DNA of 60,600 nucleotides, the filler included, from Hausera hauseri (Eukaryota): the NCBI GenBank assembly GCA_046269625.1. It is 11 parts of 11 records of this genome, joined end to end, with 100 filler letters (N's around TTAATTAATTAA, not from the genome) between each part and the next. Parts side by side here need not be neighbours in the genome. Positions count along the whole stretch, not along the records: positions 23,861 to 28,696 come from JBJURY010419254.1; 10 more parts are not named here. One strand, given 5' to 3'. A program made the translations under genes and the position numbers. Below the pieces are notes generated by a model that was given only the letters and a program-made list of their open reading frames with translations, was not told the DNA's origin and did no database searches. Positions 7,437-52,254 of this stretch are shown in pieces (within the stretch, counting starts at the first letter, position 1; every line of letters begins with the position of its first letter).

Positions 7437-7538
7437 AACGAAAGATAATATATATTTAATGTATATAGATTTATGTATGGGAAAAGTAGCATATATATAA
7501 AAAGGAATAGTGGCAAATGTATGATTAAAATTTTTATT

Positions 7539-7698
7539 ATGAAAAAGGAAGTGAAACACCTATTTTAATTCGAAGAAAAAAGAAATCATAAAGACAGCTG
7601 ATGAAGTATATGGAGTATATATAGCAGAGTGAAGATTGAAGAAAGCAAGCACAAAGTGGTTAATACCAAGACTCAAAGAAAGCTTATTGACGATTTCA
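7539..7698 (+). repeat. Possible polypurine tract and short 3' LTR
   Basis: gaaaaaggaag followed by TGAAA (7552), TATA-like tatatatag, and TTTCA ending at 7698; no second copy to confirm. Confidence 0.3.
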
Positions 7699-9090: not shown

Positions 9091-9394
9091 AACAGGACAT
9101 ACAATGAGTTAACCAGATATCCATCGATGTTTTTGTGAGGATGAAATATAACACAAATAATACCCGAAGCGAAGAGAAAAGCATTATTCCATCAGTTCAA
9201 AATTTAAACGGACAAATACTAAAGACAGAATATTTAAATAATGCTAGCTTTCTGCAAAAATATTCTGAAGAAAACACCGATGATAAATATACAATTGGAT
9301 TGAAAACCAAGATGGAAAGTCACGAGATACCAAATCTAAATTTCAGTTTTAGAACCTCTGATATTGACTGTCTTGATTTGCAATCCGTGGCAGC

Positions 9395-11472
9395 ATGGCG
9401 ACTTACGCCGCAATGAACATCTTTGCGAACCAATTGTTGCCCAACAAATTCAGGAAAAGTGACGACGTGGAGAAGTTCATTAAAGCATGTGAAAAATTCT
9501 TTAAATATATGAACACTCCGGCGGCGAAAGGAAAACCATGGTTGAATGCCTCTTGGAGAAAAAGTACAAGAAAGATACGAGGCAGTAGATGCGAAAATAA
9601 TTGGATATCAAAACAGACTAAGGAAGGCTTTCGCCCGATCCTCAACGCTGTGCGAAGATCTGAAAGAAGCACTTGAGTACAGAATGAATGGAGCAGAACC
9701 GGAGGCTTATTTAGAGGCAGTCGAGAAACTTCTGGATAAAGTCGTGAAGCGCAATCTTTCATGCGATGCTCTAAAAAAGGAACTATTGTTCCGATGTTGT
9801 AACAACAGAGAGATGAGAAGAAAAATATGCCTCAGTGACAAATGATACGCGGAAACCATAAAGGAAAAAATACGGAAGATACACGAAGTAAAGATTAAGA
9901 CAAGACGTCAACACGGTTATGGAGTACCCTGGGATCGGTAAAAGAAGCCACTAGGATGTGGCGGTACAAAATATCAGGAAACTTAGAATCAATACGACCC
10001 AAACTAGAACATCAAATAGTAGATTAAAGTGTTGAACATGCCAGAAGGAAGGACATACGAGCAGATCTTGCACCATACGGAGACCGATAAAATGCTTTGG
10101 ATACGACAAAGAAGGACACATAAGCAGGCAGTGTCCCGAAAGGAAACCAATAAGATGCTACGGATGTGGTCAGCAGGGGCACATCAGACGAAATTGTACC
10201 AACCTTAGCTGTGCGTGATGCCACCATAGGGGACATACCGAAAAGGAGTGGTACACCAGGCTGGAGGGGAAAAGAGAACCAGGATGGGACACATACAAAG
10301 TGAAAAGAAGGTACCGAAATAATCCGAACAAAAGACGCGGGATGTCGCAAACGTAGAGGAAGAGGAAACAGAATCGGAACAGGAGTCAGTTGCCCCAAAA
10401 GGCAGAGCCCCGATAGAAGTGGAGCAAATCGGGGCACTACAACAGATTCAGTCTACCATAATATCGTTATGTATAACAGTAGTATTATATCAAACAGTAT
10501 AGACGGATAAAGAAGGGGACATGGAGATATAGTGATGGATAAAAGAACACAGGAAAAAGTATGGAAATTTATGAAAACGGAAAATTTCCAAGAAGTATCC
10601 TTTAACGGAATGGAGGAAAGTGGGAACGATACGAAAATCTTCACGCTAGACGAATTGTATGTCGAACATATATCATACAGGAAGTTTAATGGACGACCAG
10701 AAATCAAATTAAAGATACAAGACACATGGGAAAATTGTTTATTGGACACAAGGGCCAGGGTAAACGTCATACGAAAAAAGATTGTGGATAAACTGGCAAA
10801 CACACACAGAGAAATCAGATAGCACACTACGATGCGCAAACAATAGTCCCTCAGATTGTTTGGGCTCACTTACGACAGACGTAGAAATCAAGGGGCTAAG
10901 GAGACATGTGACATTTCCTGTAGTGTTGGAATTACGTGCAGAAATAATAGGTGGTGTGGACCTGAAAAAAGGCATTGGGAATGGAACTGGGATGGAAACG
11001 CATGGAAACGGAAACATTATAGCAAGATATATGCATCCTGGATGCCAAGTTCGGCCGTAAGGTGAGTAACCAAGAACGAGTCAACATGGCGAAGGAAGAT
11101 CTCCAGGTGAGTGACAACAAATAGCTTCTCAACATTATGAAGAAATACCCAGAAGTAGTCATGGCCGACAAGTGGGACACAGGATGCACACCTCTCATCA
11201 AACACCGAACAAACACGACAGGAGCGCCGATTAATATCAAACCTCACAGGCAACCAGTAAACCTAGAAAAGATGATCGACGAGACCATCCGAAAGCTATG
11301 GAAAACGACATTATCAAGCCATGTAACTCAGCATGGAAAACACCAATGATATAAGTATGGAAGAAAGATAAGAACGATGTCAGAATATGCCTGGACTTCA
11401 GACAGCTGAATCTTATAACGGAACGGAAGGCCTTCCCCATGCCTAACGTGGTAGAGATATTAGACAGGTTAT
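9395..11472 (+). mobile_element. Ty3/Gypsy element family B: gag (4 CCHC knuckles), protease, N-terminal RT; degenerate
   Basis: Gag MNIFANQLLPNKFRKSDDVEKFIKACEKFF; knuckles such as CYGCGQQGHIRRNC; protease LLDTRA (DTGA-like) and IIGGVD; RT start PINIKPHRQP...ICLDFRQLN. Confidence 0.85.
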
Positions 11473-17830: not shown

Positions 17831-18688
17831 AATAAAGTGTTGTCTGGCAGTGTGTGAGCAGTTGCTGCGGCTACTGGCTGCGAGTTATTGGACTGCAGAA
17901 TATCAAAGCTTTTGTCCGCCAATAAGGCGAGCTTTTCGAGGGCAGCAGAGTCATCTACTACAGTAAGCAAAGCTCGAAAGGAGGTTGGCAAAAACGAAAG
18001 GAAATACCGACAATGAAGATCGGCATTGTTTATAGGAGTCACGCCTAAAGAGCTCAGTTGTGAGATGGCAGTTTTAAGGAAATCCGATGGTTTTTGATTT
18101 CCGATGGCGTGTTCATTAAAATACTTCTGGATTATGTAGGTAATATGTAGAACCGATTCGTACAGAATATCATACAGGCTTGAAGAAGAGAGTATATCAA
18201 CCAGATTATTGATTTGCCTCTTGATGTTGGCTGGAAGTAATTTCAGCAAACTGTCAGCCCGCTGAAAGAAATCCGTAATATGATTGGCTTGAAGCCATTC
18301 CAAATGGAACTGCAGCCAGGTACGACTAGAATTCGTCTTGTGTAGAAAAAAAATCCGTGCAGGGGAGATTTGGAGTTGTTGGTGTGGTGTCGACAGGACG
18401 ACGACCAGATTTAGTTTTTGCTAAGTGTTCGGTAGAAGGATCAAGATCTGACCCACCACGGATGCGAAAATGGACATTGAGAGTAATGGAATATTTCTCG
18501 GGTGCAAAGGATGAAAAAGAGTCGTAAGGTTGCAAAGTTAGACCGTTGTGCATAAGATAAAAATCAGAGGAGTCGAGAAAAAAGGACAATTCAGTATAAA
18601 GAAATTGAGCTGTTTGTTTGTGCGTAACCCTTAATGTGTGGACATGTTTGTTATTAGAAAATATAAGAAAAGAGGGAACAGCGCGCAA
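17831..18688 (-). mobile_element. Family C 5' end: ubiquitin-like domain (ends RIRGG at 18452) fused to gag
   Basis: FLIF..HTLRV..DFYLMHNG..TLNVHFRIRGG followed in frame by Gag LPCTDFF..TWLQFHLEWL..KPSDFL. Confidence 0.85.
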
Positions 18689-18699
18689 CGGTGGCGGGC

Positions 18700-21102
18700 A
18701 CGCTCAACACCTCACCCAAAATATCAATAGCGTCGTTTCGCATTACAAAAGATGGTGTAACCATATGTAAATCATAATTACTTTTAATTGATAACGACTC
18801 TGACAATCGTTCCGCTAACTTCTGAGCAGCTTTGACATATTGAGGAATGCTTTGTTTCAGATATTTAAACAGCAAATTTGATGTCTGAGTGGAAGGGAAT
18901 TGTTGTGGAATAGATGCGATGTACATAGGATTATTGTTAAGTGATCTTGTTGGTTTCAAAGAGGAGTCACGGATAGACTGGATGTTTTGAAATGGAGGGT
19001 TGACTTGTTCTCGACTAAGTTCCCCACAATTCAATGGACTAGTCATATATCCGTATACAATTCTATTATCAATATACACAGAAAAGTTATTTGTTTGTGT
19101 CGATTTTGCAAAGAGGATTATATTGTTTACAGGATTAGAATTGTTTATCGATGGAATGAAAGAAAGGTTTTGTGTTTCAGTGATATTTAGACTGATCAAA
19201 TAAACCATATAAACCATTGGTGCTTCAAAGACACCTGTAGTCTTACATTTCTGAATAGCAAAATAATCGTTTGAACGTTTGTAGTAACCTTGTTCTGTTA
19301 TATCACCCCAAAAGTTGGCATAAGATTCAAACAATGGGCACTTCATTTTCCATTAAATAGGAAAGAATATTTTCATCATTTATCATTACATTAGCATCAA
19401 TCATAAACAAATAATCTGCCCATGCCCGACGTGCTGATTCTAGAGCTTCTTCTTTAATTCTCAAGATCACCTGCGTCAATGAACCAGTAAGTATTTCTGG
19501 TGGACAATAGTCATCGAACTCACTGTATACATGTTTGTTCACCAGTCGAAACAACTCACCGGAACGCACACGACCGGCTCGTCCTTTCCTTTGTTCACAA
19601 CACAACTTGCTAGCCCATTCAGTTTGCAGTGATGAAAAATGTGTTTCTCTGTCGTACCGAAGTCGTTTTATCATGCACAGATCAATCACATATCGAATAT
19701 CCTTCACTGTAATAGAACTTTCGGCTATGTTAGTCGATAGGATGATTTTATGTCGTCCATCCTGAGGATTATCGAATGACGGCTTTGTTCAGATATACCA
19801 ATACTAGAATGCAAAGCCATTAAGTAAAATGTTTCTTGATAAACTTCTTGAAGAGCAGGGTTCTTCAAAACATTGGCAATACAACTATCTGAGTAGATCT
19901 TTAACGGAAAAATGGTTGCTGACTGGCCAGCATTTGTGAACATATCCCTTTTTTGGGGATTTACACAAGATTCTCGATTAGCTCCCATAAGTAAGTATTC
20001 ATTAATCTCGGTAATTTCATTCAGACCCGGAGGGAAAATAAGAACGGATCCCATACTTAGATTATTTACATCTTTGCATCTGGCGTCTGCCATTTCCTTA
20101 TACGTAATATACATTAGCAATTGATAAATGATCCCTTTTAATTCTGCCGTAAGTCTCGACGTATTCGACATGTCACACGTGAATTCTTGACAAATACCGA
20201 GACCGGGCAAATTATCCAAAAAGTGTTCTTTTACTTCATACTTTAAAAATGGCACCGGGTAATGGATTCAGAGTTTTTGGATCTGTTTATTTTGAGAAAT
20301 AACATGATTTTTTTTAGCTACAACTGTGGCTGACATAAGAGTGACTTTAGTTTTGATGTCGTGAATAAGCAAATCTTTGACCACAGATAAAAGAAGATCC
20401 ATATCAACATCTCTTTCGTGAACTTCATCTTGTATAATGAGTGTAATCTGTGAGACACTGATTGTGTATCAATTGTTCTAACAGTACTCCAGTTGTGACG
20501 TATGTTATTACTGTATCACTGCCGCATTTCCTATCAAGGCCGACTTGGTAACCGACAGAATGACCAACTTCCCAATTACGTTCCGACGCAACATGCATGG
20601 CAAGACTTATTGCTGCAATTCTTCGAGGTTGCGTAACAACTATGTTGACTGGTTCGTCACGATTAAACGCATCGTCCAATATAAATTGCGGAATCTGTGT
20701 ACTTTTACCGCAACCCATACTGCCTTCAATTACCAATGTCTGATTATTTCCAACTTCTTGCATTATTTGCGTCTCGTACGCATGAATGGGTAATAATATT
20801 GATTTTCTTGGTCCGGAACCGGCACTTTTAACGCGATTTAATCGTTCACTGTTAACTTTCTTCTGGTGCACGTTTCGCACATCTTCAACATGATCCAAAT
20901 TTATATCCGTATTCAGATTATAAACAATTGACGCATTTTCTCGAGTTGTCACACTTTCCAAATCATCCATTCTCCGATAGCGAATACCATTAGTTTGTGA
21001 TTTTTGCATTGACCATTTTAATACACTTTCTTCATCACTATATCGTTTACCTTCATGAGCAATTTTAAAGTCAATATGATGATACTTTGACTGAATAGAC
21101 AA
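18700..21102 (-). pseudogene. TDRD9: TDRD9/spindle-E-like DExH RNA helicase fragment (frameshifted, internally deleted)
   Basis: GSMGCGKSTQIPQFILD, VTQPRRIAA, VGYQVGL, YVTTGVLL, DEVHER, MSAT, ALHSSI, STNIAESSITV, EQRKGRAGRV. Confidence 0.75.
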
Positions 21103-22146
21103 AATACAATCAATATTTTCGTACTGTTATTTCCTTTTTCGACATGAACCAGTGAAATAGATGCAAAATGCCAATTTGCCGACATTGTAAAAATTAGGAT
21201 ATCAATTGGATTTTCGTTTGTCATTGTAAAATACAAACTCTTCAGACTTTTAATCGAAATTGTTCCAAAATCCAAATGATTGTGGTATAATTCCGATCGA
21301 TGGGGCAGAATCGTCAGTTTGACATTGTAAACAAACAGAGGTATCATAAAGAGCAAAACGTTAGGAAGTACTGAAATTTGCGTTATAAAAGAACTTATAT
21401 TTTCGGACGGAATAAAATCAATTTCAAATGATGCCGTTTCTTTGGAATTTATGTGAATCGGTATTTTGGAATTTGGTAGCTTAAAAGAAATATTTCCTTT
21501 TGGAGAAAGGGAAAAAGAATAAATAGTTATTTTGAAATCAAATGTGTTGGTTAAAAATATGGATTTCCTTTCAATTTTAGGTTTTTTAGATCCCGAATAA
21601 AATTTTGTATAATTAGCATCATAAACCAAAGAACCATGGTAGATATTAGCAGCAACTGGACCTTTTAAAGTTTCTTTTCTTTCATCGATGACAATGATAT
21701 ATCCACTAGTCATTGGCATTAATTGCCTTTACAGCCGAAAACGTGACCGTTGCAATTCCCATTTTATTCTGAGTTCCTGGTGGAACGTATTTTGTATTGA
21801 TGTCAATCAGAACTGCTTCATGTGACTTATCCATCACGATATCCTTTATTACAAGCAATCGATGTCCGGAATTTATTACGTATGATTTCAACGATTTGAA
21901 TATAGATATTAATTGTATTGAAGATGATTCATGATTATTTAAAATTATAACTTCTTCCAATTTGCTTTCGCCGATATATCTGTTTAATCTTAGAATAAAC
22001 AACATTGATAATTTAAATACATACGTGGCCGCAAACTCAATTGTTGGAGGATCAAAATGTACAGGATTTGCGGGCACTTTTCCATTGTAAATCCTTAAAA
22101 ACAAATATGAAACTCTATCAAATACTATGTCCATATCAATTATCAA
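21100..22146 (-). pseudogene. TMEM131: TMEM131-like fragment with a retained 45-nt intron and internal deletion
   Basis: HFDPPTIEF..IGESKLEEVIILNN, INSG, IPLFVYNVKL, LDFGTI...FTMTNENPIDI match TMEM131 blocks; gtatgt...aacag intron near 21980-22024. Confidence 0.7.
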
Positions 22147-22237
22147 GATTCGCCTGAGTAATCTATATAAAAAATATGGAATATAACCTACACATTTAAC
22201 AAAAATACCACCCAGACAGTTGCAAACAATATATTAC

Positions 22238-22426
22238 CATCTTTTTCCTTAGGCGCTTTGTAAAACGACAATGCTAATGAGATGATGGCAGCAACAATGA
22301 GTATGATCAAGGTAACATCTTGCAATGCCTCCCATACTAACTGCAGGAAGCTCTTGGGAGGTTTTGGAGGAATAACATTTGAGCCAAACACCCTCCGCCT
22401 CTGTTCTAAGTCAGTACAATCAATAC
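22238..22426 (-). pseudogene. ATP2B: Isolated exon of plasma-membrane Ca2+-ATPase (PMCA)
   Basis: [51 protein letters not shown], bounded by ttttag and gtaata splice signals. Confidence 0.85.
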
Positions 22427-23429
22427 CTAAAATCACAGAGATATAAAGTATTTCGGAAGCCAGCTATCTTCAGGTGTCACTAAAACACAGTAGATGAGGT
22501 CCAATAAAAAGAGAACAATGCAAAGTCATTAAACAAAAAATACCAAAAATATGGCAAACAAAAAGAGCCGAAAATGAACATCTATTAGCATAAAGCAAAA
22601 ACACAACACAAATAAATCGGAGTATGTTAAAATGTTTCAGTAAACATGGGGAGTCTGAGGTACTACAAGCGCCCTGGCAACCCTCTACCTCAGCAACATG
22701 TTTAGTCCATACCTCTCCCGACCTCAAGGTGGTGGTTTCAGGCAATAGAAGAGAACCCTTCCTGCCTATAGTGACAGGCTCGGGATGGTCACCAACTTGA
22801 AGATGGACCACTTCAAGACGGTCACATTAATAAGTACTAACTGCACTGAGGAGCTTAATCAATCCTTTATGTAAGCATAAGGATGGCAGAAAGCTTTGCC
22901 AATCTCTCAAACAAGGCTCGTATAGAAGAATACAAACTCAGTGAATCAGAGTTAACAACAATAAAAATTCCCTTGCCAGCAGATAAATATTTTAACTCTG
23001 ATAAAAACCAAAAAATAAATTATTAAAGGATCCCACAACTGTAAATGGAAGACACAATTTTTTTTTTAAATACATCACAATCACAATCTGATAAAAACCA
23101 ATGAAATATTACAGAACAAGAACTGAATAAATAAAGTAATACAGAAATATATAAAACACACAGCAATACGTGAACTTACTACTTACTTGGTTGTAGAAAA
23201 ATAAAACATAATTACAACAATAGAAATAGACAATAGAATCAAATAACTAGAACTCACAGAAACAAACATACTGACTAATACAAAGAGTTTAAAGTTGTTA
23301 TACAAAGAAAAGTCTGAGATGAAATATACTATGGAGATGTTACATTAGTGTTTCAGCGTCACAAGTTGGCTTCCTAGTGATCCTGGCCCCAGCAAAGGAT
23401 TTCACTGTATGTTGTCCAGCTTTTAGTTC

Positions 23430-23860: not shown

Positions 23861-26036
23861 CATAATTTACTGGGACTAATGTCCAGTCCATAATGGTTTC
23901 TTTATCTAAGTCGGGAATCTCACTTTCCCTTTGGTAAACTTGATATTGCATTTGAAACATTATTTTAATGTGGTTGTTCACAGGAACGGACAGCTTTTCA
24001 GTCCTTTTGGACCTAAAAATTGGGGTTAAATAATTTCCTATGCTGAGGTTTTCCCAAGCGTATACTCCATCTGGTATTTCTTGTATTCCAGCGTTTTTCA
24101 CACAGAACATCGCTTCCTTTATTTTCTGATGGCTACAATATTCGGCCGTTACGAGTAGTCTGGAAAATTCTTTGTTCGTGGAAAAATGCACATTTTTTTT
24201 GATCTTTTCTTTTTCAAGACGTTCACTTCCCTGATAACGATATCGTTGTCTGATTTCCTCCTTTGGGTTTGAGTTCTAGTTTTCTTTTTATCTCTTCGGA
24301 GTGCATTTCTTTTCTTTTATTCGGGGTTTCTGTGCTCGGAGATTCCTTTTTTATTATTTCGTTTTGAGTTTCTGTCTTTTCAGGCTTTTTAAGTTTTGCA
24401 ACTACGGTTATCTTCGCCATTATTCTTCTTTTTGAATAAGTATTCGTATAGGGATAGTTTCCTTTTTCCCATGGAAAATATAGCTTCTTCTTCACCTTTT
24501 CGGTTTCTTTCGGATTTCTTCAGTACCTTGAATTCTTCTTGATCCTTGGATCTTTGCTTGACCGGCTCTGAATTTGGACTTTGATTGGTGCTGGGGTAAT
24601 TGTTTGTCGTGATGATTTGCTTCGGTTCAATTTTCTAAATTGTAACTAGGTAACTGTCCCCTGTTGTTGATTCAACCGTTCTGACGGAGAAATAAGGCCT
24701 AAAATGCCTTCTGTGTTTGAAACTTAATCCTTCGGGGTTTGTTGTGCTTGTCAAATTTTGTCTAGGGTTATCTGGAGTCCATTCGTGTTCCCATTTAAGT
24801 CCAGAATATATCTCTTAGATATTGGGAACGTTGACTCGCTGTCAAGAGTCTGCTAATTCGAACGTGTTCTCCACTCATAGCCTCCAACATTAGCTTAAAT
24901 CGGCCTTCTGCTGTCGGTGGTAAATAACCATTTCTTTTGCTGACGGTCTGTTCCATCTGCTGCATTACTACTGGGTAAGTCTCGATTTCTCTAACTCCAC
25001 TCACGTGGGTATCAGGTAATTTCAACTTCTTCATAATTCTTTCTATTTGATATCCAACAAGTATACTTCCATCCAGGCAATGGATTAATTCTTCGTGAAC
25101 TAATTCGCTGCCTCTGCCGTTAACTAATTGCTCCTTTTTGATTCCAGTAACTTCTGAAAAAGTTTTTCATACTTTCTTCTTAGGGCTAATGATTTCTGCA
25201 TAGAGTTCGGTTCCTCCTAGTTTTCGTATTGATACTCCAATTGGAACGTCATTTCCTTCGTCTGTTTCTCCGTAATTAACAGTAATAATCCTGGCATTTT
25301 TATCGTCTTGGACTAATTTGAAGGAGTGCAGGTGGTCGTCTTGATCATCTTCCGTTGGTCTTTGAATGAATCATAGTGGTGATAACTGAATAAATGGAGC
25401 GTATTCATAACATACTTCTATCATAAGTTTGACAGGCAGTGTGGCAACTCGAAATTCTAATTCACAATTGTAATGGTGGAAATCTGCGCTATTGATTAGA
25501 AAAGTACTGTATCTATGCTGACGTCTTTGTGCAGAATCCCAATTTTGATCTTTTAACCTATAATAGATTTCTCTGTCCGCTAAGTGAATAAATATATTCT
25601 GGTGATATACTGGTTCATATTGAACGAGTTGTTTTAATGCCTACGCTCGTACGTCCTTATCTTCTCTCATTGCGTATAATCGTACTGTCCGGTTCTCCTC
25701 GTTACTGCCTTTTAAGTTATTTGGGACCTTACGTGTTCGTTTGTATTCTACGAATTGCTTTCCGTGTAGTTCGTTATTGATTTGTCGGAATATTGACTTA
25801 GATTTAGGGATTAGTACTGTGGCACAATTCTGTAGGAAATCGTCGATGCTACGTCGGCTGTTTCCTGAATTAAATTTCTGGGCTTGATCGTCGATACTAC
25901 GTCGGCTGCTTCCGGAATCCATCTGGATTCTTATCAATCTAAACAATAGACAGTAAGGGTTAATCTTACAACAAAGCATAGTTTTGAACCAAAACCAATT
26001 CTTTGTTTGATGATAGAAGAACCCGACCTGTAATTG
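23861..26036 (-). pseudogene. Second copy of the long accessory ORF (homolog of 5243-7436), broken
   Basis: Shared blocks RRSIDxFLQ, IPxSKSIFxQINNEL, EIYYRLKDQxWDS, DFHH, LPVKLM, EVTGIxKEQLV, EYxSHQKIKEAMF. Confidence 0.8.
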
Positions 26037-26039
26037 TCA
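25955..26039 (-). promoter_or_regulatory. Candidate readthrough element UGA-CAA-UUA + stem-loop (copy 2)
   Basis: TGA CAA TTA CAG then an open frame into ORF 25641-25979; hairpin AACAAAG/CTTTGTT and TGGTTTTG/CAAAACTA. Confidence 0.65.
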
Positions 26040-27284
26040 GGTTATTTTATCATAGACATATTCTTGGGGTTCCCATACCCTTAATTCCCGTTCTACGATT
26101 TTAGTACGCTTAGTTCGACAATTTACGGTAACTAATCGAAATATCGCGATACATATTATAAATACAAGCGTTGACAGACTTACGATCATTACTATGGATA
26201 ATGTAGTCAACTTTTCGGGTTCATTAATCATTGTCTCAGTAGTAGTTTCTTGTCTTGTGTTTTTGTCTGCATGTGGCGCTATTTGCATTTCTGCTAAGGT
26301 TTGTATTGTAAACGTTTGACTCTGAGTATCTTTTGCATGTGTTTGGATTATATATTCCGTCTTGAGTTTTAACGAGTTACATTTGGCGTGATGTGAGCCT
26401 TTCCATAAGGTTGTTTTCACAGTTTTATACATCGTACGGCAATATATTTCGACATTATAATTAAGCTTCTCTTCTACTGAAAATAGTACTTTGTGTTGCT
26501 GTATAGAGCATTTTACAGGAATCTTAAGCCATTTCTTTTTGTTCATCTCGCTTGTTGTAGTAAGCTTACCAATGGTGCTTATTAGAGTAGTCCACTTCGT
26601 CGTCGTCGTTTCGATTGGAATTTTCCAGATTCCACTGTCTGGATGATATCTTCCTAAATAAATACTTGATTTATTTATTCTGATTCCATAGAGGTCAAAA
26701 TGAATCCTATATTCATGACCTGCTGCAATTTTACAACAAATCCTAAGATCTGTGATCTTTAGACTACAATATTCAGGCGTTGGACTTGACTCCTTTAATT
26801 TGGTAAATTGGATTGAGATTTCTTGTTTACTGGGCAATCTTCCTTTTGTGTCTATTTGGATACATTTGCCGTTCTTATTAGCAGAAATTTTGACTATATT
26901 TTCATTTAATACCCATTTGATGGGGTCCATCGATTGTACTATGTCATCGAGTTTCGTTATGTTAGCCCGTTCTTTAGCTGGTATGACTAATTTTACTTGC
27001 GGTCTTATTGCTCCTTGAGTGTGCTCATAGTTTTTGTAATACATTCGTATGGTAAAGGTATAAGTGTCTCCATAATTTACGACACAACAATTTTCTTGAG
27101 CTCCATATGGAAAATCACAATGAGTCATTACTCGTTTATTAGCGTTCCATAGGACTACTTGGTATCTTACCGATTTTTTCACGGCTCCGTCCGTCTTAAA
27201 TAACAGACAATCTCCTTTTGAGTCTATACTTTGGACTTTAAAACGATCTAAAGTGTTTAAATCATTTCTTTTTATTCTTATCAA
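26037..27284 (-). CDS. Retroelement-encoded type I membrane protein with about three FN3-like repeats, Thr-rich stalk, TM and YxxI tail
   Basis: Repeated strand motifs NYGDTYTFTIRM, AAGHEYRIHFDL, LKLKTEYIIQTHA; TM LSIVMIVSLSTLVFIICIAIF; tail YVYDKIT. Confidence 0.65.
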   Translation of the reverse strand: MIRIKRNDLNTLDRFKVQSIDSKGDCLLFKTDGAVKKSVRYQVVLWNANKRVMTHCDFPYGAQENCCVVNYGDTYTFTIRMYYKNYEHTQGAIRPQVKLVIPAKERANITKLDDIVQSMDPIKWVLNENIVKISANKNGKCIQIDTKGRLPSKQEISIQFTKLKESSPTPEYCSLKITDLRICCKIAAGHEYRIHFDLYGIRINKSSIYLGRYHPDSGIWKIPIETTTTKWTTLISTIGKLTTTSEMNKKKWLKIPVKCSIQQHKVLFSVEEKLNYNVEIYCRTMYKTVKTTLWKGSHHAKCNSLKLKTEYIIQTHAKDTQSQTFTIQTLAEMQIAPHADKNTRQETTTETMINEPEKLTTLSIVMIVSLSTLVFIICIAIFRLVTVNCRTKRTKIVERELRVWEPQEYVYDKIT

Positions 27285-27296
27285 TTTATTCTTCGT

Positions 27297-27722
27297 TTAT
27301 TGGCGCAATTGTTGTATTAATCCTCCTTGAGCATTGGCCTTCGGAATAATTGAGGCTTTCAGTGATAGTGATAAGACTATCTGTAAATAAGACATGGGTC
27401 TGGTAACAATAGACGAAGTTTTGGTTTTCTTTCCTTCTGTTTTCGGGTTCGCTTTTGTATCGTTAGTGCGTAATTGATATCGTTTTTCTGGCCTTATTTC
27501 CGTCTTCACCACTCGTTGTATTGACACAACTTCTTCCTTCCCGTTTTTACTAATAGAAACAGTGGTGGGTGTTACTCTGATAATTTCGTACGGTCCTCGT
27601 CCAGTACGCGTAAGTTTTAACGATGTGCCTTTCTTCGCTACGGGATAGTGTACATAAACCCAATCTCCGTTTCTTAGATCATGTGGTTTCGCGTTTTTGT
27701 CATACTGCTTCTTAAAGCTCAT
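27297..27722 (-). mobile_element. Gypsy integrase C-terminal (GPY/F) region followed by a signal-peptide-like segment
   Basis: KKQYDKNA..LRNGDWVYV..KLTRTGRGPYEII; then MSYLQIVLSLSLKASIIPKANA; same frame as 26037-27284. Confidence 0.8.
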
Positions 27723-28796
27723 GCAGCAGGACGAAGCACTTCTTTACACGCCTTAAGATGAGCCGCCGGAGCCCTGACCGTGTGAAAACCAGTATTGGTT
27801 TGACCGACATAAATAGGAGGCAGATTTAAGCAAAAAGCCCAACTCGTCTTTCCTGAGCGTGTTCCCTGAAGTAGTTGAAGAGGCCAGGAATAAGAATGCC
27901 ATTTGCATATTCACAACATGACTTGCCGGAGTCAAAGGAAACTTTGCCTCGCTATAAGCCTTGGGTGCTCGTGGTCCACGGTTTATTTTGTTTGTCTCCT
28001 AAATGCACCGCCGAGCACCTCAAAAATCGAAGATGAAAAATCGAAAAAAAAATATTAGACTTGCCAGTCATCGTCATCATCGTCATCATCAAGTGACTTA
28101 ACAATCACTGCTCGGGAAAAAAACAATGAAATCTACCAAGGCGGAGTTCCTCACTGGTGTCAATGAGATCGATTCTGATCCGAGGTTCTCCAGAGTGGAA
28201 GCGAACGGAGAACTTATGGATATGTATCCATGTGCAAAGATGTTGACCCTTCTACTCAACTAAAACCAACAAAACCAAACTAATAACAGTGAGAAGAAAG
28301 GTGGTATAAGTATAAAGCAACATCAACTATAACCTGACTTTCTAAACCTCATAGAAATCCTAATTCCTATTACTTTCTTCTATAAATGATTTATAAATTG
28401 TAGGTGTAAGTTATTGGGACAGATGACCAATGGACTTAATGCATGAGAAGCAAAACACAACTTGCATTTTACTGTTCAGTGAGCTGGTATAAGTTTTGAA
28501 ACAAAAAATGTCACCTTGCATTTCTAAAATCCCTCCCTAATCTACTCAAAATAGTTAGATTCTTTGTTAAGCCATATTTCACAAATTCCTTTGGTTCAGT
28601 TCATGTATTAACTGAGTTTACCGTTTTTTTTTTCTGTAATGGAACAATCTCATAATATTTGGCTTCTCAAAGAATATGTAATTTGCATAACTTTTCNNNN
28701 NNNNNNNNNNNNNNNNNNNNNNNNNNNNNNNNNNNNNNNNTTAATTAATTAANNNNNNNNNNNNNNNNNNNNNNNNNNNNNNNNNNNNNNNNNNNN

Positions 28797-30060: not shown

Positions 30061-31554
30061 TCTCTTAAAGCGTTGAAGCACGTATCATGTCACGAGTGAT
30101 GATGTTTGAAACTCGATGAAAATTTTGTTGGTATTTGCCACACAACCTGTATCTAAATGATGACATGATGGCGTAATGCATAATATTTAATATATACATA
30201 CTACTGATGTATTTGTCAGTAGTATCAAATGTCATTTACTAATCTATATATAGTATGTTACATTTCAGGTTACTAAATCAATTATTGATTGAATGATTTC
30301 ATTTCAACGGGGGAGTTAGACAATTCATAAATTTATCAATTAAATGATCCAGACTACGGTTAATATAACCCACCTCATGGTGTATGTTTGACCACACTGG
30401 GTAAAATTAAATGGTCTGTGAATGGTCTAACTCCCACTTTGAAATTACAATGATGTCAGAAGTACAGATCATACTCTACCGTCTCATGCATTTCGGAATG
30501 GCTTGATTATCGGACATTCGAATGCAATGCAGGGTTGGAGGATTGCTGATTCTGTGATTCGCGGAACTTTTTACGTTTTTATTTCCTTGTAAATAATGTA
30601 CGGGTAACTATTGTTAAAGTTAAAACGGATGTCGATGATTTTACCACAAAAACAATATTAAATCCCATTATGATAACATACTGCATTCTAATATACTGCA
30701 TTTTTGTTTTAATGCATCAATTGAATGAAATTAATAAATCCGCCAAATTTAATTCATCATCTAGAAATTCACAGTGAAGCAACATATGCGCACCAGAATT
30801 TATCAATTCGCAAATATTCGAATTGTGAACCGATATGCGAACTTCTGACGTCATAATCGGACTCCCCATACATGTTTTCCTATCTATCTATGCTTAAAGA
30901 TTTATCGATTCTTGTACCCCACAGTTTGAAAATCAAGTTAATTAAAGCGCGTGCACACACATTTGTGAAATTTTCAATGTTAATTTACTCGGTAAGGATT
31001 CATCGAACATGGTCTATTTTATTTTTTATGCAAGGTTTTCACAGATGTGGAATCGAATAAAACCATCAGATTCTTAGAACAATGTACTCCTGATCGAGTT
31101 TTTGAGTTCGAATAGCTTTGTATTCGACTTGTAAGCTCGAATTAGAATACATGATACCATATTCCGATTTGCCATGCACGACTTCCTATCCCGCCCGCTT
31201 ATAGATTTATCGATTTCTACTTCAGTGGGATTCAAATTCACATTTTGCTTAATTCAGAATATTGACTTTGTATCTATATAGTACATTTTAATGCAATAAT
31301 TTTTATGCATTAGGGGTTTTCCGCTGTTAGAGTTCCGCTGTTAGATTTTTTGAATAGTTCGATATTCGATATTCGGGCGAAAATTTTTTCGAATTTCGAA
31401 TATGTAACTCGATATTTGAAATCTCCATAGTCGACTTCCAATCTGTCCCCGATAATTATAATACCGAATTTCGCTTTCTTGGGGCCTAAAAGCCTATGGG
31501 AAGTCTGCCTCAGTTGCATTTTTTATCGATATTATTCAAAATCGGCTGGATAAA

Positions 31555-32340: not shown

Positions 32341-34820
32341 TAGATGCGCACACACCCCCGGGGGGATGTGCCAGAATCCCCATTTTTACTGTACTACCGA
32401 CCGCACCACTAAACTTGCCGTTGTCGATTTTACCACAAACCGTTCATTTCCCGACGGTAACATCAATGGTTCATTGAAATTCACCACTTTTCCTTTCGCT
32501 TGCTTTTTGTCTCTTTGACCGACTTCCCACTTTTTTCAAACACGCGAACCCCATGTTTCCCACATCATTCGAACGCCCATACTATACTCTACACTTTCTC
32601 TTATCCATTCCTGCTCAAATTTTGCTTCGGGAAAAAGTTCGTTTTTTTTTTGCATTTCCCGGATTTGTCTTTAGCGACACGCAAAAACCGACCTTACCAT
32701 TCAACTCGCCGTTGTCGAATTGACCAATCAGCATGCGAGCGTTACGTGGTTGGTCAGTTGGTGCGTGGGTGGATTCCCACCCATGTCCTTGTTCCAGATT
32801 CATCTTTTTTCCTCTACTATCTTGTAATAAAAATATTGTGAATGCCATATTTTTGTAAATTTTTATATATATATGTGCCAAAAACATTTAAGTATTACAT
32901 CAACCTTTACATTAATTTTTATAAATTTCGTTAATATTTCTACCAGATACTTTATTGTTCAATGGAAAATAGTTAATAAAAATAATTTACTTAATATTAC
33001 AACACTTTTGTAGATATCGAAGTTGTTACAATATACATATCCCGTTTCGGTGAACTAAACAATAGTTACTTATATGATGTCATTCAAGGAACACTGCATG
33101 GGTAAAATTNNNNNNNNNNNNNNNNNNNNNNNNNNNNNNNNNNNNNNNNNNNNTTAATTAATTAANNNNNNNNNNNNNNNNNNNNNNNNNNNNNNNNNNN
33201 NNNNNNNNNCGAATTATGTCGGCCTTTAACATTCGTTCTACCTCTTTCGTTATTTCTGGTCTCAATGAATGAGGAGGTGGATACCATTTAGGCATTTTCT
33301 GTTCCTCTAGATTGATTTCATCGTTGGAACAGGGTTTCTTCCTTAACGGGAATTGTTAATCTCAGGGCTTTTGCTCTGCCTGTGTCTTCCTCATTTTGTG
33401 CGATTATTGACCGGTACTTACATAGTAATTTGTAGAACTTTCAATATGCCTAAGGAGAGAATTTGGTTTCAACATGAGTTGAAAATTTAGCACACTTGTA
33501 TGGTTTCTCCTCTATTGTCACTGCCGATACTCTGTACGTATGACCCAAGGTAGCATACAATCTTACTCAGTTTGGCGCGTTGTTCACTAATTTGATAGGT
33601 ATTCGTCCCGTCATTATTCTACATAGAATATTGCTAAACATAAGATTTGGGTCAATGTTCTCTTAAGGCTCGAAGTATATTGGGCGATCCTCGTCCTGTC
33701 GAATCTGTGAGAAAATTATCATTTCAGTTTTAGGCGGAATGTCTTTATCTACCGGAATCCATAATTCGCCCGATTTCCTTTCCTTTATTACTTTTGTCTC
33801 TTTTATAGTTTCGAGCACAATTAATTTTCCGTTATGCACATCGATTGCCATGCCCGGCATTTGTTTTAATATATCACAACCTAGTACTACATCGTCTGTT
33901 AACTGGTCCATTATCGCAAGTTTATGTTGAAGTGCTTGGCCCATCATATAAACGGTAGGAGTCCATTTAACTTTCGACTTCGATACTTGCCCAAATGCCC
34001 CTGCGCTACCTGGATCCGATAATGCGGGTGGACATTGCTGGTCTCGCAATGTGGTTGGTATAGATTCATATTTTATAAACGATTTTTCTGATCCGGTGTC
34101 GATTAATGCATACCCTTCCCAATCTTCGATGTGTATTTTAGCGAAGGATCTTTCTTCTGCTACTGTTCCGTAGCAATTTGACACTATCTTTGATTGTTTT
34201 ATTGTGGAGATTCTATATCCATTTATCGTTATTTCTGGCGATGAAATGATATCTTGTTTTAATTGTATTTACTCTCCGTTCGGGTACAAGTTATTGTTTG
34301 TTATTTTAATAACGCGACTGTCGATGAGCGGTTCCTGGAGTAGTAGACTCGAGATCGAACACATTTTTGGGTTTTCTCAGATTGTTGATTTCGATTCTAT
34401 GTGACGCGGTATTCTTTTTGAGTACAATATTCCGTGGTCGTTTTCGGTTGGTCTTTGGTTGATAACATTCATTTTCCGTAGTACTCTGTATTGTTTTGTT
34501 TTTTCATAAGGAACTTCATAATTAATGGGCTTTTGATAGTTTTCGGACCTACGTGATACAATTGAATTGCGGTCGCAGTCTTCATATACTGGTGATGTTG
34601 GTGGAATGATGGGTAATGGCGCGTTAATCACTGAATACATCTTGTGCATCTTCATTCTGGAGCTCACTTCTCTTCCCTTAGGCTCGTCAGCATCTGAATC
34701 ATCCTTTCGTATCATTGCTTTCTTATTTTTACGTTTATTGAGAATCGACGGCCCCCCTCGCCGTTTGCGATTATAGTACCCGACGTGGCGTTCTACGTCA
34801 TTTTTCCATCGGTTCTCTTC

Positions 34821-36650
34821 TTAGGCCTTGAGCATTTTCCCGAAGGGCGTGATAATTTCAGTCAAAATTTTGCAGGAAAATCCTGTTAAGTTGAATATTT
34901 TATAGCCGTTGATGATGGCTTGGATCACTGCTTTGATTACTTTGACTAAAAAGTAAATGGCTAGGAATCCAGATGCGGCTCGTCCAAAAATTAGAAACCT
35001 TCCCCAAATCTTATACAGTATTTTTGAAGTTACCCTTTGATAGTGATTAGCGCCGAGTAACGATTCCCATTTCACTTGGAAGCGGGTGTCATCCATGACC
35101 ATTGACATAGCCCAATTCAGTTCATAAGTTCTTTGGCGTGGAAATGCTAAGAATTGCTTAAATGCTTCTATGTCTTTTGGTCTATAAATTCCTTTATTAG
35201 CCGTGTCCTCAAACTTCTCTTCTGATAATCCCTTTATTAAATTTGTCCCAGTTAGTTTACTAGGGCCTGCGGCAGCGCCTCCATTGGGCAAACGTATCCA
35301 GTCGGTTCCACTACGTCGGAACATGGGTTCACCTAGACTCGTCTTACATTATTTCAGTACTGCTGGTTCGGTTGAGTTTGCCGATAATACTCTGGTGAGT
35401 GGCATCGCTAGTCTTGGCATATTCTCATAGATGACCGGTAATTCTTGCATACATCTTTTCTCTTCTACGTTGATTTGTACGTCTCTTTTCTCGCATGCAT
35501 ACGTTAATAGGACTTCTTCGGTATCTCGTCCAAAAACGTCTTCCTTCATTGGTATAATTGGTGATGCTAGTTCTGGGTTGGCATAGATTAAGGCCAGCTT
35601 GGTTCTCATGACTTCAGTATCTAATCTGCAGTCATTTGTTATCATTTTGTGGTATAGTTCTGCTATTCCGGTCTGTTCTTTGAAACAGAAATAGTCGTCT
35701 CGATTCTTGAGATTATCCTCAATCCGTATGTCTTGCGTTTTCAAATTATACGTTTTCATGTTGATTTCAGTTTCTGCCACGAAAAATGCTTCGTAATTTG
35801 TGGCATACATAATTACATCGCAGCGTGTAAACATTTCTTTTCTAAGAAACTTCAATCCATGTGCGTCCGATATCAATGTCGTCGGTGTGAGATGATCTAT
35901 AACATTTTCCCTTGATCTAGTATTTGTGTGTAACTTATCTGTATAACGTTTTACGCTTGTCTCATTAAACTTTAGTTCTTTGATTTTAATGAAGTTACAA
36001 TCTCTCTTGGAGGGTGGGCTCCATTCAACGACTGAACTTCTGAACGTGCAAGCTCCATCTTGAATGTGACAGTTTTGATTTTCAGTGAATAGCTTGGTAA
36101 CACTATAAAACATCGCTTTTAAAGATCTTAATTCGGTTTCATAAAAGTCCACGACTACTATTCCTCATTCTATTCTGTTCCCTGTGTCATATTTTCCTCC
36201 GACACAATAACCGGTATGCATGTTCAATTTTCCTACTGCCACTTTGTAGGCTCTAATTATTTTCTATTCTTAGGCTTCCAGTTCCATGCTGTCCCAGACC
36301 ATTTTACCTGTTAACCGGGCTCCTAAACAATGTTGTGTATCTACGTTCATTGGAATCAATGGAGTGGTCGGTTTAATTATTGAAGAATGCCCGTGCATAT
36401 TGCCACAATGAAAAATGCTGCGAGAGCTCCGTATCGTGCATTCTGTCGCATCCATTGCGATTAATTCACGTTGTTGATATAATATGTACCTTTTTTGTCT
36501 CGAGTTTATGAGGTCTCGCATCTTCGTATGTTTCTAAGTCCATTAAGGAATATTTCTGACCCACTTTGAACTTATCGCAATTATATACGGTAACTGCCCC
36601 TAACTGCTTCACTAGCATCATTATCGTCACCAAGTTGATTAACCAAATGG
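34821..36650 (-). pseudogene. Chuvirus-like glycoprotein (env-like), broken by stops and frameshifts
   Basis: Signal-like IWLINLVTIMMLVKQLGA then VTVYNC; ECTIRSSRSIFHCGNMHGHS; TM WGRFLIFGRAASGFLAIYFLVKVIKAVIQAIINGY. Confidence 0.8.
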
Positions 36651-36927: not shown

Positions 36928-37767
36928 TTATTTAAATCGCGAAGTTCTTATCGTCCGGGTTATATTATATATTAGTCTTTCCTTCTCAGATAGTATGTCG
37001 CCTTGGAATTCGGTGTAATTGACTGTGCTTATTAGATCTTTCATTAGTTCAGTCAGTTTTTCATTATCGGAACTTGGAGTAGGTACTGATAGTTGTCTTA
37101 ATTCTCTAATCAGATCCGCGTTATAACCGATTTCCTTTATTTTTCTTGCTCTTCCGACCGGCCGTTTCGCTTTTATAGGTGGTGCGGTTTCGCTCAGCGG
37201 GACTATATTCTTATCGTATTGCGGTTTGTCCTCGTCCGTCTGTAAGTATTCGAAATACATTGAAGCAGCCTGAATCCCCATGATTCTTCCAACGCACTGT
37301 TCTGTATGTGCCTTTCTCATAGCTTTGTCTTTGGTTTGCTCACTGGCGATTATTGTTAATATTATCCTATTTTCCTCGAAAGGTATAATCCCTACGTCTA
37401 TTAAGGATTTTAACTTATCTAGTATCCTACCTCTGAAATATAGCCGATAATTAATTCCTTTCCTATCATCCTTATCCATTATCCGTTGTTTTATATCCGC
37501 AACAGTGGTATAAGTAGTGCACTCAAATTCCTCGTCATCCATCCATTCGGATGATACCTTTACTTTAAGTTGCGTTTTTGGTTTATTTCTTAGAAATTTA
37601 GCGTACTTCTTTATTAGGAGCTTGGGTACAGCGCTGTATGCGGTATTTTCACTAGATAGTTTGGTCAAGGTTGGAATCAATCTCCTTAACCTATCTTCAC
37701 TTATATGTATTTTCAACACATTGCTCAGTTCCTTTTCGGCTATTGTAGGATCAAGCAGCATTTGCAC
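36928..37767 (-). CDS. Family A upstream protein segment with an internal ubiquitin-like domain (about 37348-37575) and AT-hook-like motif
   Basis: QLKVKV..TTVADIKQRI..YRLYFRGRILD..SLIDVGI..IILTI follows the ubiquitin-fold pattern; KRPVGRARK. Confidence 0.7.
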   Translation of the reverse strand: MQMLLDPTIAEKELSNVLKIHISEDRLRRLIPTLTKLSSENTAYSAVPKLLIKKYAKFLRNKPKTQLKVKVSSEWMDDEEFECTTYTTVADIKQRIMDKDDRKGINYRLYFRGRILDKLKSLIDVGIIPFEENRIILTIIASEQTKDKAMRKAHTEQCVGRIMGIQAASMYFEYLQTDEDKPQYDKNIVPLSETAPPIKAKRPVGRARKIKEIGYNADLIRELRQLSVPTPSSDNEKLTELMKDLISTVNYTEFQGDILSEKERLIYNITRTIRTSRFK

Positions 37768-38413
37768 GTCAAATTTCGTCCTCTGGGTACCAATAAGTTA
37801 CTCAAAAATTTGTATTGAAATTCTTTGGCTTTGTTCGTTTAGACCTTGGAGATATTCATCACACTCGGCTTCATTACCTGCGTCAGGTAACTCAGTTCAT
37901 TAGCGCCGCATGTCCGACCTGGACTCTTTCGCGTAATTCTCTTATCTAAAGTTGCAATGTTTTCATTACGGATATCCTTAACCCGTCTCCATTTCCGCAC
38001 TCTTGTTGTATAAATGTTATTAGTCGGCACATTTCTTCTGGTTTTATCAAGGCTTTCTCCCGATAACTAGTCATTTCTGTGATTCTGTCTCTTTGTCATC
38101 TCTGTATAAATTCCATTTTGTTGTTCATTTCAGATTCCGTAAGGGAATACTTGTTCTTGAAAACTTCTGTTTCTCTCAGTAATTCGTTTAGCTCGCGTTG
38201 TCTTTTCTCGGAGCGTAACCGGGTTTCTTTTACCAAACGTATTCGATTTGTTAGTCGTTTGGCTACTACTTCGTCAATTTCTGCCATTTCTGTTAATAAT
38301 AGGATTAATTTGTNNNNNNNNNNNNNNNNNNNNNNNNNNNNNNNNNNNNNNNNNNNNTTAATTAATTAANNNNNNNNNNNNNNNNNNNNNNNNNNNNNNN
38401 NNNNNNNNNNNNN

Positions 38414-38487: not shown

Positions 38488-39525
38488 CGATCAGAGTGTC
38501 TGGAAGTACTTCTCTCCCTTAGAGGTCTGGTTTCGCTTCGTCGAGGCCTATTGAGATTATTTAGTTGGATTGTAATGGCTAGAATTGACTGCTGTAAGTC
38601 GTCAAACTGTCGCTGCATAAATTGCAATTGTTGTGAGAATGAAATGTTGTCGGTGTGTGAAGGTATGTGAGCGGTTGTTGCAGCTACTGGTTGTGGATTA
38701 TTAGACTGCAAAATGTCAAAACTTTTGTCTGCCAATAAGGCGAGCTTTCCAGGGGCTGTAGAGTCATCTACTACGGTGAGTAGCGCCCTGATGGAGGTAG
38801 GCAAAGATGAAGGAAAATACCGACGAAGAAGATTGGCATTATTTATGGGAGTGACGCCCAAGGAGCTCAATTGCGAGATTGCAGTTTTAAGAAAATCCGA
38901 TGGTTTTTGATTTCCGATGGCGTGTTCATTAAAGTATTTCTAAATTATGCTGTCAATGGAGGGGTCGGTGATATGCAGAACTGATTCATACAGCATACCA
39001 TATGGACTTGAAGAAGTAAGTTTGTCAGCAAAATTGTTGATTTGCTGATTGATGTAAGCTGGAAGTAATAGCATCAAACTGTTCGCCCGCAAAAGGAGTC
39101 TGTAATATGATTGGCTTTAAGCCATTGCAAGTAGAACTGCAACCAGGTACGACTAGAATTTGTCTTGTTTAGAAAAAAATCCGTGCAGGGAAAATTAGGA
39201 CATGTATTTAGTATGGAGTCGATAGGACGACGACCAGATTTGGTCTTTATGGGGTTTTCCACATAAGAAGGATCGGGTCCGGTCCACCACGTAAGTAAAA
39301 ATGGAGCATGAGACAGGTGTCTGGACGTTTGTGGCATAAGAAAAACGAAAGGGAGTCTGAAGGATGTACTATAAGCCCTTGATGTGTGAAATATAAATCA
39401 CAGATGCTATATGATGAGGACAATGCGGTATATAAGAACTGTGCTGTCTCGTTGAGTGGAGCATGTAAGGTGGTAATGTGTTGGTTGTAGCTAAAGACCA
39501 GGAAAGATAATTGTAATGAGGTCAT
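38414..39525 (-). mobile_element. Family C 5' end: UBL (ends YLRGG at 39283) fused to gag; degenerate
   Basis: Homologous to 17831-18688; Gag runs to MTCFYHTRF at the contig edge and continues at 44436. Confidence 0.85.
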
Positions 39526-52245: not shown

Positions 52246-52254
52246 TAATTTTTT

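Follow-up and report, generated by a model that had tools for sequence, protein, structure and literature searches.

A membrane protein gene with predicted fibronectin type III domains, carried by a multi-copy retroelement of Hausera hauseri, ends at a candidate type I read-through stop before a pseudonuclease-RING gene

The window analysed here is a stretch of 60,600 nucleotides (nt) from the AT-rich genome of the animal Hausera hauseri (assembly GCA_046269625.1). It consists of 11 unrelated contigs of 4.3 to 6.6 kb, separated by spacers of 44 N's, a 12-nt sequence and a further 44 N's; adjacency across a spacer carries no meaning. One contig (23861 to 28696, JBJURY010419254.1) contains, on the minus strand, a copy of a retroelement, termed copy 1, in which an integrase tail is followed in frame by a gene for a type I membrane protein with predicted fibronectin type III (FN3) domains and then by an accessory gene of the DEDDh-like pseudo-exonuclease and RING type. 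A diverged copy 2 opens a separate contig (4861 to 11472) and runs on the plus strand. In both copies, the membrane protein gene ends with TGA-CAA-TTA-CAG, a stop codon in the type I (tobamovirus) read-through context (26028 to 26039 in copy 1, identical at 5240 to 5251 in copy 2), and the frame is continuous across the TGA into the downstream gene. Judged from these sequences, programmed read-through at the UGA is probable. An earlier reading of the locus, made from the sequence only, had described the integrase tail and the membrane protein; it overlooked the conserved read-through-type TGA and the in-frame pseudonuclease-RING gene, which probably change the role of the protein.

The copy 1 frame extends from 27743 to the TGA at 26039-26037 and is interrupted once, by a TAA at 27299-27297. 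The 148 open codons before the TAA include the probable C-terminal SH3-like tail of an integrase (27495 to 27722), with its GPY motif at 27596-27588. This tail is truncated upstream, where depth drops, and was recognized from Pfam matches to MLVIN_C (E = 0.002) and SH3_Tf2-1 (E = 0.067), neither of which reaches the curated cut-off. A module of this kind goes with the integrases of Ty3/Gypsy LTR retrotransposons, a group to which the element may belong. A PDB sequence search with the tail returned designed repeats only, which were rejected, and a query combining tail and signal found no homologue among proteins of 995 to 2,840 amino acids (aa), which is weak evidence. A basic linker connects the tail to a signal-peptide-like stretch (27330 to 27395), which starts at an in-frame ATG at 27395 and ends A-N-A. 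This stretch, assigned by hydropathy, is moderately hydrophobic (Kyte-Doolittle [KD] 19-mer of 1.13) and is the second most hydrophobic segment of the frame; the Lys codon that breaks its hydrophobic core is a site where 20 contigs differ. The description of a GPY tail running in frame into a hydrophobic signal-like stretch was accurate. A putative splice-acceptor-like site (27399 to 27414), consisting of a pyrimidine-rich tract with 8 of 12 pyrimidines before the CAG at 27402, lies 4 nt before the signal ATG. A signal, as judged by hydropathy, and a transmembrane (TM) anchor are both positioned 3′ of pol.

The TAA (27297 to 27299) lies between the signal and repeat 1, 10 codons past the predicted signal cleavage site, in a context that is not a read-through motif. 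No signal was present between the TAA and repeat 1. Past the TAA, a Met does not occur until residue 57, within repeat 1, indicating that the 419 following codons are not a separate protein with its own start. A second, separate protein beginning after the TAA, as proposed in the sequence-only reading, is also at odds with a signal that lies upstream of this codon. The downstream gene of copy 1 has decayed, with 3 premature stops in 413 codons, a rate that predicts ∼4 stops in 568 codons; at this rate, the probability of at least one stop in 568 codons is 0.98 and that of one or none is 0.08. Among 40 of 1,075 differences listed for the family contigs, none fell at the TAA. The downstream stop at 25167-25169 differs in 16 other contigs carrying 231/236 of the depth. 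As the TAA follows the cleavage site in an ordinary context, as the next Met is inside repeat 1 and as the decay rate predicts a stop, the signal and ectodomain probably form one gene, and the TAA is probably a decay mutation of copy 1.

The 419 open codons after the TAA, a slightly greater length than the 415 aa reported earlier, are free of introns. The repeats, stalk, TM helix and YDKI that had been noted are all there: Y-x-F/I strands at Y79, Y196 and Y315 mark three beta repeats, several segments are rich in Thr, and the TM helix is followed by a tail of 33 residues with YDKIT at its end. The protein has N-glycosylation sequons (n = 2), and 11 cysteines lie in the ectodomain. The TM helix (26139 to 26195, residues 368-386) follows a Thr-rich stalk, has a KD value of 2.98 and is kept in copy 2; in a full-length model, it forms part of a helix spanning residues 361-404, with blocks at a predicted local distance difference test score (pLDDT) of 88-89 at residues 371-390. 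The YxxI sequence of the cytosolic tail, YDKI, occupies residues 415-418 (26043 to 26054). Copy 2 retains the end of repeat 3, the stalk, TM helix and tail and the same TGA context (4875 to 5242). Conservation of the tail in this copy had been claimed, and residues 299-419 do match, at 43% and 34% identity (E = 4e-14 and 4e-6), but the match crosses a one-base frameshift between the TM helix and the tail, and the copy is on another contig.

Repeats 1 (26976 to 27257, four cysteines) and 2 (26616 to 26912) align at 17% identity with four Cys, a Gly and a Tyr in register. Repeat 1 was folded by AlphaFold2 with a two-row alignment of repeats 1 and 2. The resulting model (pLDDT 71; predicted template-modelling score 0.60) is a seven-strand beta-sandwich of ∼90 residues, with six strands at pLDDT 75-88 and a weak seventh below 50. 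Structure comparison by VIA matched the model to fibronectin and the IL-20 receptor with a Z of 8.3 and a root mean square deviation of 2.6-2.8 over 83-84 of 91 residues. FN3-bearing proteins, judged by title, made up 48/50 VIA rows; the top rows were tied, and no single receptor family was picked out. The Foldseek leaders were tissue factor, fibronectin, monobodies and the EPO and IL-4 receptors (probability 1.00, template-modelling scores of 0.55-0.60). Atlas searches, which serve as leads, linked the whole protein to FN3 type I membrane proteins (0.84-0.88) and the ectodomain alone to fn3 in 10/10 rows (0.85-0.87). Repeat 2 had a Pfam match to Rho_GDI (E = 1.5e-4) under the cut-off, and repeat 3 (26289 to 26534) had weak profile matches to Pur_ac_phosph_N (E = 0.029) and to a Dscam FN3 domain (E = 0.52). 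Several results tell against an FN3 assignment: the VIA Z of ∼8 is close to the level of common beta-sandwich arrangements, the Foldseek E-values are ∼0.01, the Atlas scores are all below 0.9, hhalign found no link of repeat 3 to repeats 1 and 2, the Pfam fn3 family had no match to the repeats and the full-length single-sequence model is poor (pLDDT 43) and usable for the TM helix only. The FN3 fold is a prediction that is good for repeat 1, made by homology for repeat 2 and weak for repeat 3. The FN3-like sandwich suspected in the sequence-only reading was, to this extent, recovered in the repeat 1 model.

No homologue of the 419-aa frame was found among the proteins of 230 to 734 aa in a collection of 5.8 billion, a full HMMER scan not having been run with the FN3 protein. 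A PDB sequence search with the whole protein gave two weak METTL16-type matches (E = 0.065 and 0.52), which were rejected, as was the outcome of a BFVD structure search (best E = 0.068). The protein had been said to resemble no recognised fusogen, and this was borne out. No fusion glycoprotein family matched the FN3 gene in a Pfam scan that finds Monjiviricetes_fusion on 4 other open reading frames (ORFs) of the window. No fusion peptide follows a furin site; the best ectodomain 19-mer has a KD value of 0.53, and R-x-K/R-R is confined to residue 7 and the cytosolic tail. Class I cytokine receptors are marked by a WSxWS motif and a proline-rich box 1, neither of which is present in the translation. 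The gene thus appears to encode a non-fusogen type I membrane protein with three predicted FN3 domains.

Depth data were derived from the contigs of one sequencing run that carry the stretch; this run is possibly the window's own source, and so not independent, and the depth figures are not copy numbers. Among the sequencing runs listed with the stretch, there was this one run and none from RNA. A total of 4,809 contigs aligned to the copy 1 stretch, of which 4,178 were <95% alike. All bins between 23861 and 27748 had a depth of 170-25,104 (4330 in 27587-27748), compared with 4.17 in the next two bins beyond; family coverage stops at ∼27748 and is followed by single-copy DNA. The integrase tail, FN3 gene and downstream gene belong to a multi-copy retroelement family, as depth is 170 or more over the element versus 4-6 in the unique flank and a second copy is present in the window. 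One deletion-derivative contig (depth 9.9) joins 26056 to 27557. The A content of the sense strand is 37-41% throughout the integrase tail, FN3 gene and accessory gene, compared with 29% in the flank. As family depth spans 23861-27748 and drops beyond, copy 1 breaks off within the integrase, and the membrane gene cannot be taken for a host gene that flanks an integrase scrap. The membrane gene is very probably an element-borne FN3 gene. The earlier view of a type I protein carried by the element was upheld by the TM helix, the signal-like stretch and the multi-copy depth; the outcome named there as contrary, an intron-containing host gene at this locus only, is not what was found, since the gene is intronless and multi-copy. 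The attachment, receptor-decoy or immune-modulating roles suggested in that reading are candidate functions. The integrase core is absent from the copy 1 contig.

The motif of type I read-through, CAR-YYA, is functional after UGA as well (PMC3542737, PMC13517186). In both copies, CAR-YYA and an xxG codon lie directly 3′ of the stop. Of the 6,680 stop triplets in the window, 10 are followed by CARYYA and 2 by CAATTAnnG, these two being the copy 1 and copy 2 stops. The type II contexts UGA-CUA and UGA-CGG are absent, the sequence being UGA-CAA, while the synonymous-site conservation next to the stop that goes with type II sites was detected.

DNA identity between the two copies peaks on the stop, at 37/40 versus ∼25/40. 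Codons for the same residue were changed in 1/22 cases inside 25965-26060 and in 90/155 outside (Fisher p 9e-7), the limits of this island having been picked after the identity peak was seen. Third-position changes numbered 2-4 per 25-codon window on the island, while the lowest count in any such window clear of it was 8. The highest depth of the contig (25,104; 100-108 contigs) sits on the island, with loose ends at 26004 and 26054, indicating that many divergent copies keep the island. The YDKI codons lie inside this region of RNA-level conservation, and so conservation of YDKI provides no independent evidence of the endocytosis signal that the sequence-only reading had suggested as a possibility.

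An extended stem-loop of 24 pairs is predicted 12 nt 3′ of the TGA (25957 to 26024). Over the two copies, 47/48 cells are paired, with two one-sided changes, and the 120 nt from the stop gave folding z values of -2.8 and -1.6. An Rfam search gave one sub-threshold fluoride riboswitch match on the opposite strand (E = 0.18), which was rejected. Between the TGA and the next ATG common to the two copies lies a linker (25920 to 26036) of 39 open codons, with no stop and no indel in either copy; 14/23 changes are at third positions (p 0.006), and the chance of 38 codons staying open is ∼0.06. Within the linker, 16 nt before the ATG, is a second acceptor-like AG, preceded by 9-10 of 12 pyrimidines in both copies. 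In the first 32 codons, which precede this AG, 10/17 changes are at third positions (p 0.03).

The accessory gene of copy 1 (23861 to 25922) has an N-terminal domain, for which no match to a barrel fold was obtained, and a DEDDh-like pseudo-exonuclease at ∼25295-24804. It is broken by stops at 25641-3, 25371-3 and 25167-9 and by later frameshifts, and it leaves the contig before the RING finger. Copy 2 has the linker and the downstream gene (5243 to 7436), with an internal deletion and a decayed RING finger at ∼6985-7120 (zf-RING_2, E = 4.6e-4). A full HMMER scan with the next ORF of copy 2 detected two relatives, each 40% identical and present on one metagenome contig: P0004 (333 aa) and P0005 (870 aa). 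P0004 is similar to the latter half of the linker. Residues 58-699 of P0005 align collinearly with copy 1, and residues 58-306 and 598-870 do so with copy 2; a search with P0005 residues 50-420 found only P0005 itself. The DEDDh-like domain of P0005 has fold homology to PolC exonuclease (E = 2.3e-5), DnaQ (E = 0.002) and ISG20L2 (E = 0.004). The Exo I motif of DEDDh enzymes is an acidic D-x-E; at the putative position of the first catalytic Asp, all four aligned rows (4/4) have Asn, a site that the profile alignment to these exonucleases does not reach. The RING finger is intact in P0005 (zf-C3HC4, 30.8 bits versus a cut-off of 21), decayed in copy 2 and off the contig in copy 1; the profile matches of P0005 include ZNRF3, in the RING region only. 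From these sequence comparisons, the downstream gene encodes a DEDDh-like domain, probably a pseudo-exonuclease, and a RING. Searches for a related locus gave 5 pattern matches in viral contigs and 262 in metagenome contigs, of which 0 were confirmed in either set.

These features are consistent with an in-frame accessory gene behind the integrase-like tail, encoding a type I membrane protein with three FN3 domains, whose UGA is partly read through to give a membrane-anchored ligase, a reading that we regard as having an even chance of being correct. Entry into the endoplasmic reticulum would be by the signal at 27395, following either translation of a spliced subgenomic RNA generated at the acceptor 4 nt upstream or a signal-peptidase cut from Pol. 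Most ribosomes would halt at the UGA, producing a glycosylated surface protein of ∼430 residues with three FN3 domains on a stalk and ending YDKIT, while a few percent would read on into a form of ∼1,300 residues with a cytosolic linker, pseudo-exonuclease and RING. The FN3 ectodomain may bind a host surface protein, which the RING of the long form, acting on it or on its partners, would ubiquitinate for uptake; such uptake would weaken a defence or signalling pathway of the host in cells with an active element. RNF43/ZNRF3 and viral K3/K5 combine an ectodomain or TM anchor with a cytosolic RING and remove surface proteins, a layout that served as our working model for the long form. By this analogy, action of the long form as a ligase on surface partners is possible but tentative. 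These proteins have a PA domain or no ectodomain, a constitutive RING, no leaky stop and no pseudo-nuclease, unlike the arrangement proposed here. The most specific statement, that a plant-virus type I signal and stem-loop switch the FN3 surface protein of an animal retrotransposon into a membrane pseudonuclease-RING ubiquitin ligase, may hold, with a likelihood just short of even.

A number of observations weigh against this interpretation. No xxA, the 5′ part of the tobamovirus motif, precedes the stop, which is UGA rather than UAG (ACC-UGA). The island begins ∼45 nt before the stop, an extent that stimulators on the 3′ side leave unexplained. For the stem-loop, compensatory pairs number 0/24 in the two sequences, the spacer is 12 nt versus the 7-9 nt reported and an alternative hairpin enclosing the UGA is as good a fit (31 pairs, 98% paired); the 111 nt spanning the stop gave folding z values of -2.9 and -4.1. 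The letter-by-letter comparison covers two copies only. The downstream gene could be explained without read-through by the acceptor-like AG before its ATG, and the two acceptor-like AGs of copy 1 follow an identical 10-mer (27414-27400 and 25952-25937, minus strand). One stop per 568 codons is somewhat low for pure decay (p 0.08), and integrase core, FN3 gene and RING are never together on one contig here.

One alternative is that the two genes are expressed separately, with the FN3 protein ending at the UGA, the pseudonuclease-RING protein made from its own spliced subgenomic RNA and the island acting as some other RNA element, such as a splicing control, export or packaging hairpin, in which CAA-TTA occurs by chance. 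This scheme is in keeping with the pyrimidine-rich acceptor-like AG that both copies have 16 nt ahead of the downstream ATG, the matching site before the signal ATG and another possible AG directly after the CAA-TTA motif, and also with the reach of the island 5′ of the stop and the folding of the UGA-enclosing hairpin (z of -2.9 and -4.1). Furthermore, ORF3s of long terminal repeat (LTR) elements typically arise from spliced messages (PMC5408684), and Tca2 illustrates that a stop with a predicted structure does not necessarily direct read-through (PMC2194720). However, separate expression leaves unexplained both the 9 nt in frame directly after the stop that match the tobamovirus motif exactly (2/6,680) and the open, indel-free linker with its third-position excess upstream of the acceptor, and we consider it unlikely. 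Splicing and read-through are compatible routes and are not exclusive. Read-through could also be real but serve a different purpose, with the long form being an RNA tether for spread: the pseudo-exonuclease would bind the element RNA or particle, the TM helix would anchor it at budding membranes, the RING would recruit the budding machinery and the FN3 domains would mediate attachment to neighbouring or germ cells. The env-like position of the gene fits such a function, and inactive DEDD derivatives retain RNA binding (PMC5408684). The read-through coat-protein extensions of luteo-, beny- and pomoviruses are likewise minor long forms, those of beny- and pomoviruses having the same motif, and fusion glycoprotein genes on other contigs of the window could provide fusion in trans. 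This tether is rendered quite unlikely by an FN3 gene without a fusogen and by the lack of any indication that particles of this family leave the cell.

The remaining alternatives concern the upstream boundary and the origin of the gene. If the TAA were a conserved boundary, either a second recoded stop or the true end of Pol, the integrase would end in a hydrophobic tail and the FN3 protein would need another start. A single stop lies between pol and env in SIRE1 (PMC2194720, PMC2829016), stops are rarer in the FN3 frame than expected from the decay of the downstream gene (p 0.08) and none of the 40 of 1,075 differences that were listed falls at 27297-27299. This boundary is improbable given that the TAA is 10 codons after the predicted cleavage site and outside a read-through context, that neither a Met nor a signal precedes repeat 1 and that the TAA bin has no conservation peak (depth 426). 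A host receptor gene next to an integrase scrap at this locus only would have the ordinary FN3-TM-YxxI layout of host receptors, and would fit with the missing integrase core; this possibility is largely refuted by the depth data and is highly improbable. The gene is intronless over 419 codons and multi-copy at 80-99% likeness, a diverged second copy in the window has the same neighbours, the base composition is element-like and no host homologue of the 419-aa frame was found among proteins of 230 to 734 aa.

The proposed partial read-through of the UGA into the pseudonuclease-RING gene has precedents in other elements and viruses. SIRE1, a soybean Sirevirus of the Ty1/copia group, reaches its env-like ORF through suppression of a stop codon (as cited in PMC2194720 and PMC2829016); if the UGA is leaky, the two would share the layout of an LTR retroelement with such a stop in frame before a 3′ accessory ORF. 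The SIRE1 stop, however, parts pol from env in a plant copia element, whereas the stop described here ends a membrane protein, would extend its cytosolic tail and is in an animal host. The type I UAG-CAA-UUA sites of tobamo-, beny- and pomoviruses share CAA-UUA-xxG after the stop and a synonymous-site freeze, and benyviruses add a local stem-loop (PMC3542737, PMC3159437); coat-protein extensions in beny- and pomoviruses share the motif with this stop (PMC2754532). Unlike the viral type I sites, the element has UGA in place of UAG, lacks the 5′ xxA and has a 12-nt spacer. Type I read-through is absent from animal viruses according to a 2026 review (PMC13517186); Providence virus is listed as type I in PMC3542737.

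Non-fusogen accessory ORFs at the 3′ end are known from the Juno and Vesta elements of bdelloid rotifers, whose ORF3s encode small TM proteins and DEDDy exonucleases; these exonucleases keep their catalytic residues and are separate ORFs, unlike the pseudo-exonuclease here (PMC5408684). The words 'fibronectin', 'RING' and 'readthrough' have 0 occurrences in PMC5408684. The giant planarian elements Burro/GYPSM1 are invertebrate gypsy elements that likewise carry many ubiquitin-related accessory domains, but in Burro an env of the fusion type is placed in frame between gag and pol, and the available text describes no FN3 membrane protein or read-through in it (PMC6431247). Errantivirus env genes (F-type and HSV/gB-type) share a signal peptide, ectodomain and TM helix 3′ of pol and an acceptor-like site before the start; they encode fusion glycoproteins, in contrast to a predicted FN3 sandwich without a fusion peptide, and the FN3 gene is not a member of these env classes (PMC13524379). 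The protein resembles cytokine-receptor and tissue-factor modules in having a Cys-containing ectodomain of predicted tandem FN3 domains and a single TM helix, but identities are 8-18%, WSxWS and box 1 are lacking and the matches are tied with fibronectin. An FN3 membrane ORF, or read-through from a membrane protein to a RING, in an LTR element was not found in the literature searched, which excluded Repbase, subscription papers and supplements (the PMC3159437 compilation and PMC13524379 lists).

Extra ORFs and read-through in retroelements are already known. The additional ORFs at the 3′ end of LTR elements usually encode fusogens or have no explanation; the present ORF would instead mimic an FN3 receptor and is not a fusogen. 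Should ribosomes read through the UGA, one gene would yield a surface protein and a membrane-bound ubiquitin ligase at a fixed ratio, a tobamovirus-type recoding signal would be present in an animal retroelement and pseudonuclease and RING accessory pieces would be tied together with an FN3 gene. A retrotransposon would then be remodelling the host cell surface in the manner of large DNA viruses.

The surroundings of the two copies contain further features. The region that follows the RING gene of copy 2 (7437 to 11472, plus strand) has purine tracts at 7541 and 7572 and then a 107-nt piece (8110-8216) common to 30797-30903, which are hints of a polypurine tract and LTR; these are followed by a CxxC-rich ORF (8524-9090) and a fresh gag-protease-reverse transcriptase (RT) start at ∼9380, a layout possibly reflecting tandem elements around one LTR. 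In the flank of copy 1, a short, highly abundant repeat is located at 28073-28396 (depth 10,000-13,000). The single-copy flank next to the integrase tail (27722-27910, minus strand) presumably resembles a decayed GIY-YIG (Penelope-type) motif; no Pfam match was obtained for this segment.

Elsewhere in the window, Monjiviricetes-type fusion glycoprotein genes are found upstream of protease (and RT and integrase) at 54938-59691 (plus strand) and 33666-36164 (minus strand), an env-before-pol order as described for Burro and flatworm elements; a ubiquitin-like piece (36931-37797) is near the latter element. A stop-free, intronless ORF of 982 aa at 45313-48261 (plus strand) starts with a FYVE finger (E = 1e-16) and has weak matches to Ig domains. 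Broken ORFs at 18657-22233 (minus strand) have Helicase_C, weak STAND/KaiC NTPase and TMEM131L/Cep192 Ig-like matches, and part of this region recurs at 38663-39313 with 78% identity. At 22242-22427 (minus strand) there is a segment resembling an exon of a P-type cation ATPase gene (Cation_ATPase_N, E = 3e-15), which we take to be probably from a plasma-membrane calcium pump. A degenerate tandem array of 10-12-bp units occupies 51291-52310. Lastly, an identical 74-nt sequence at both ends of one contig (38414-38487 and 44363-44436) is consistent with a tandem arrangement or a circular assembly overlap.

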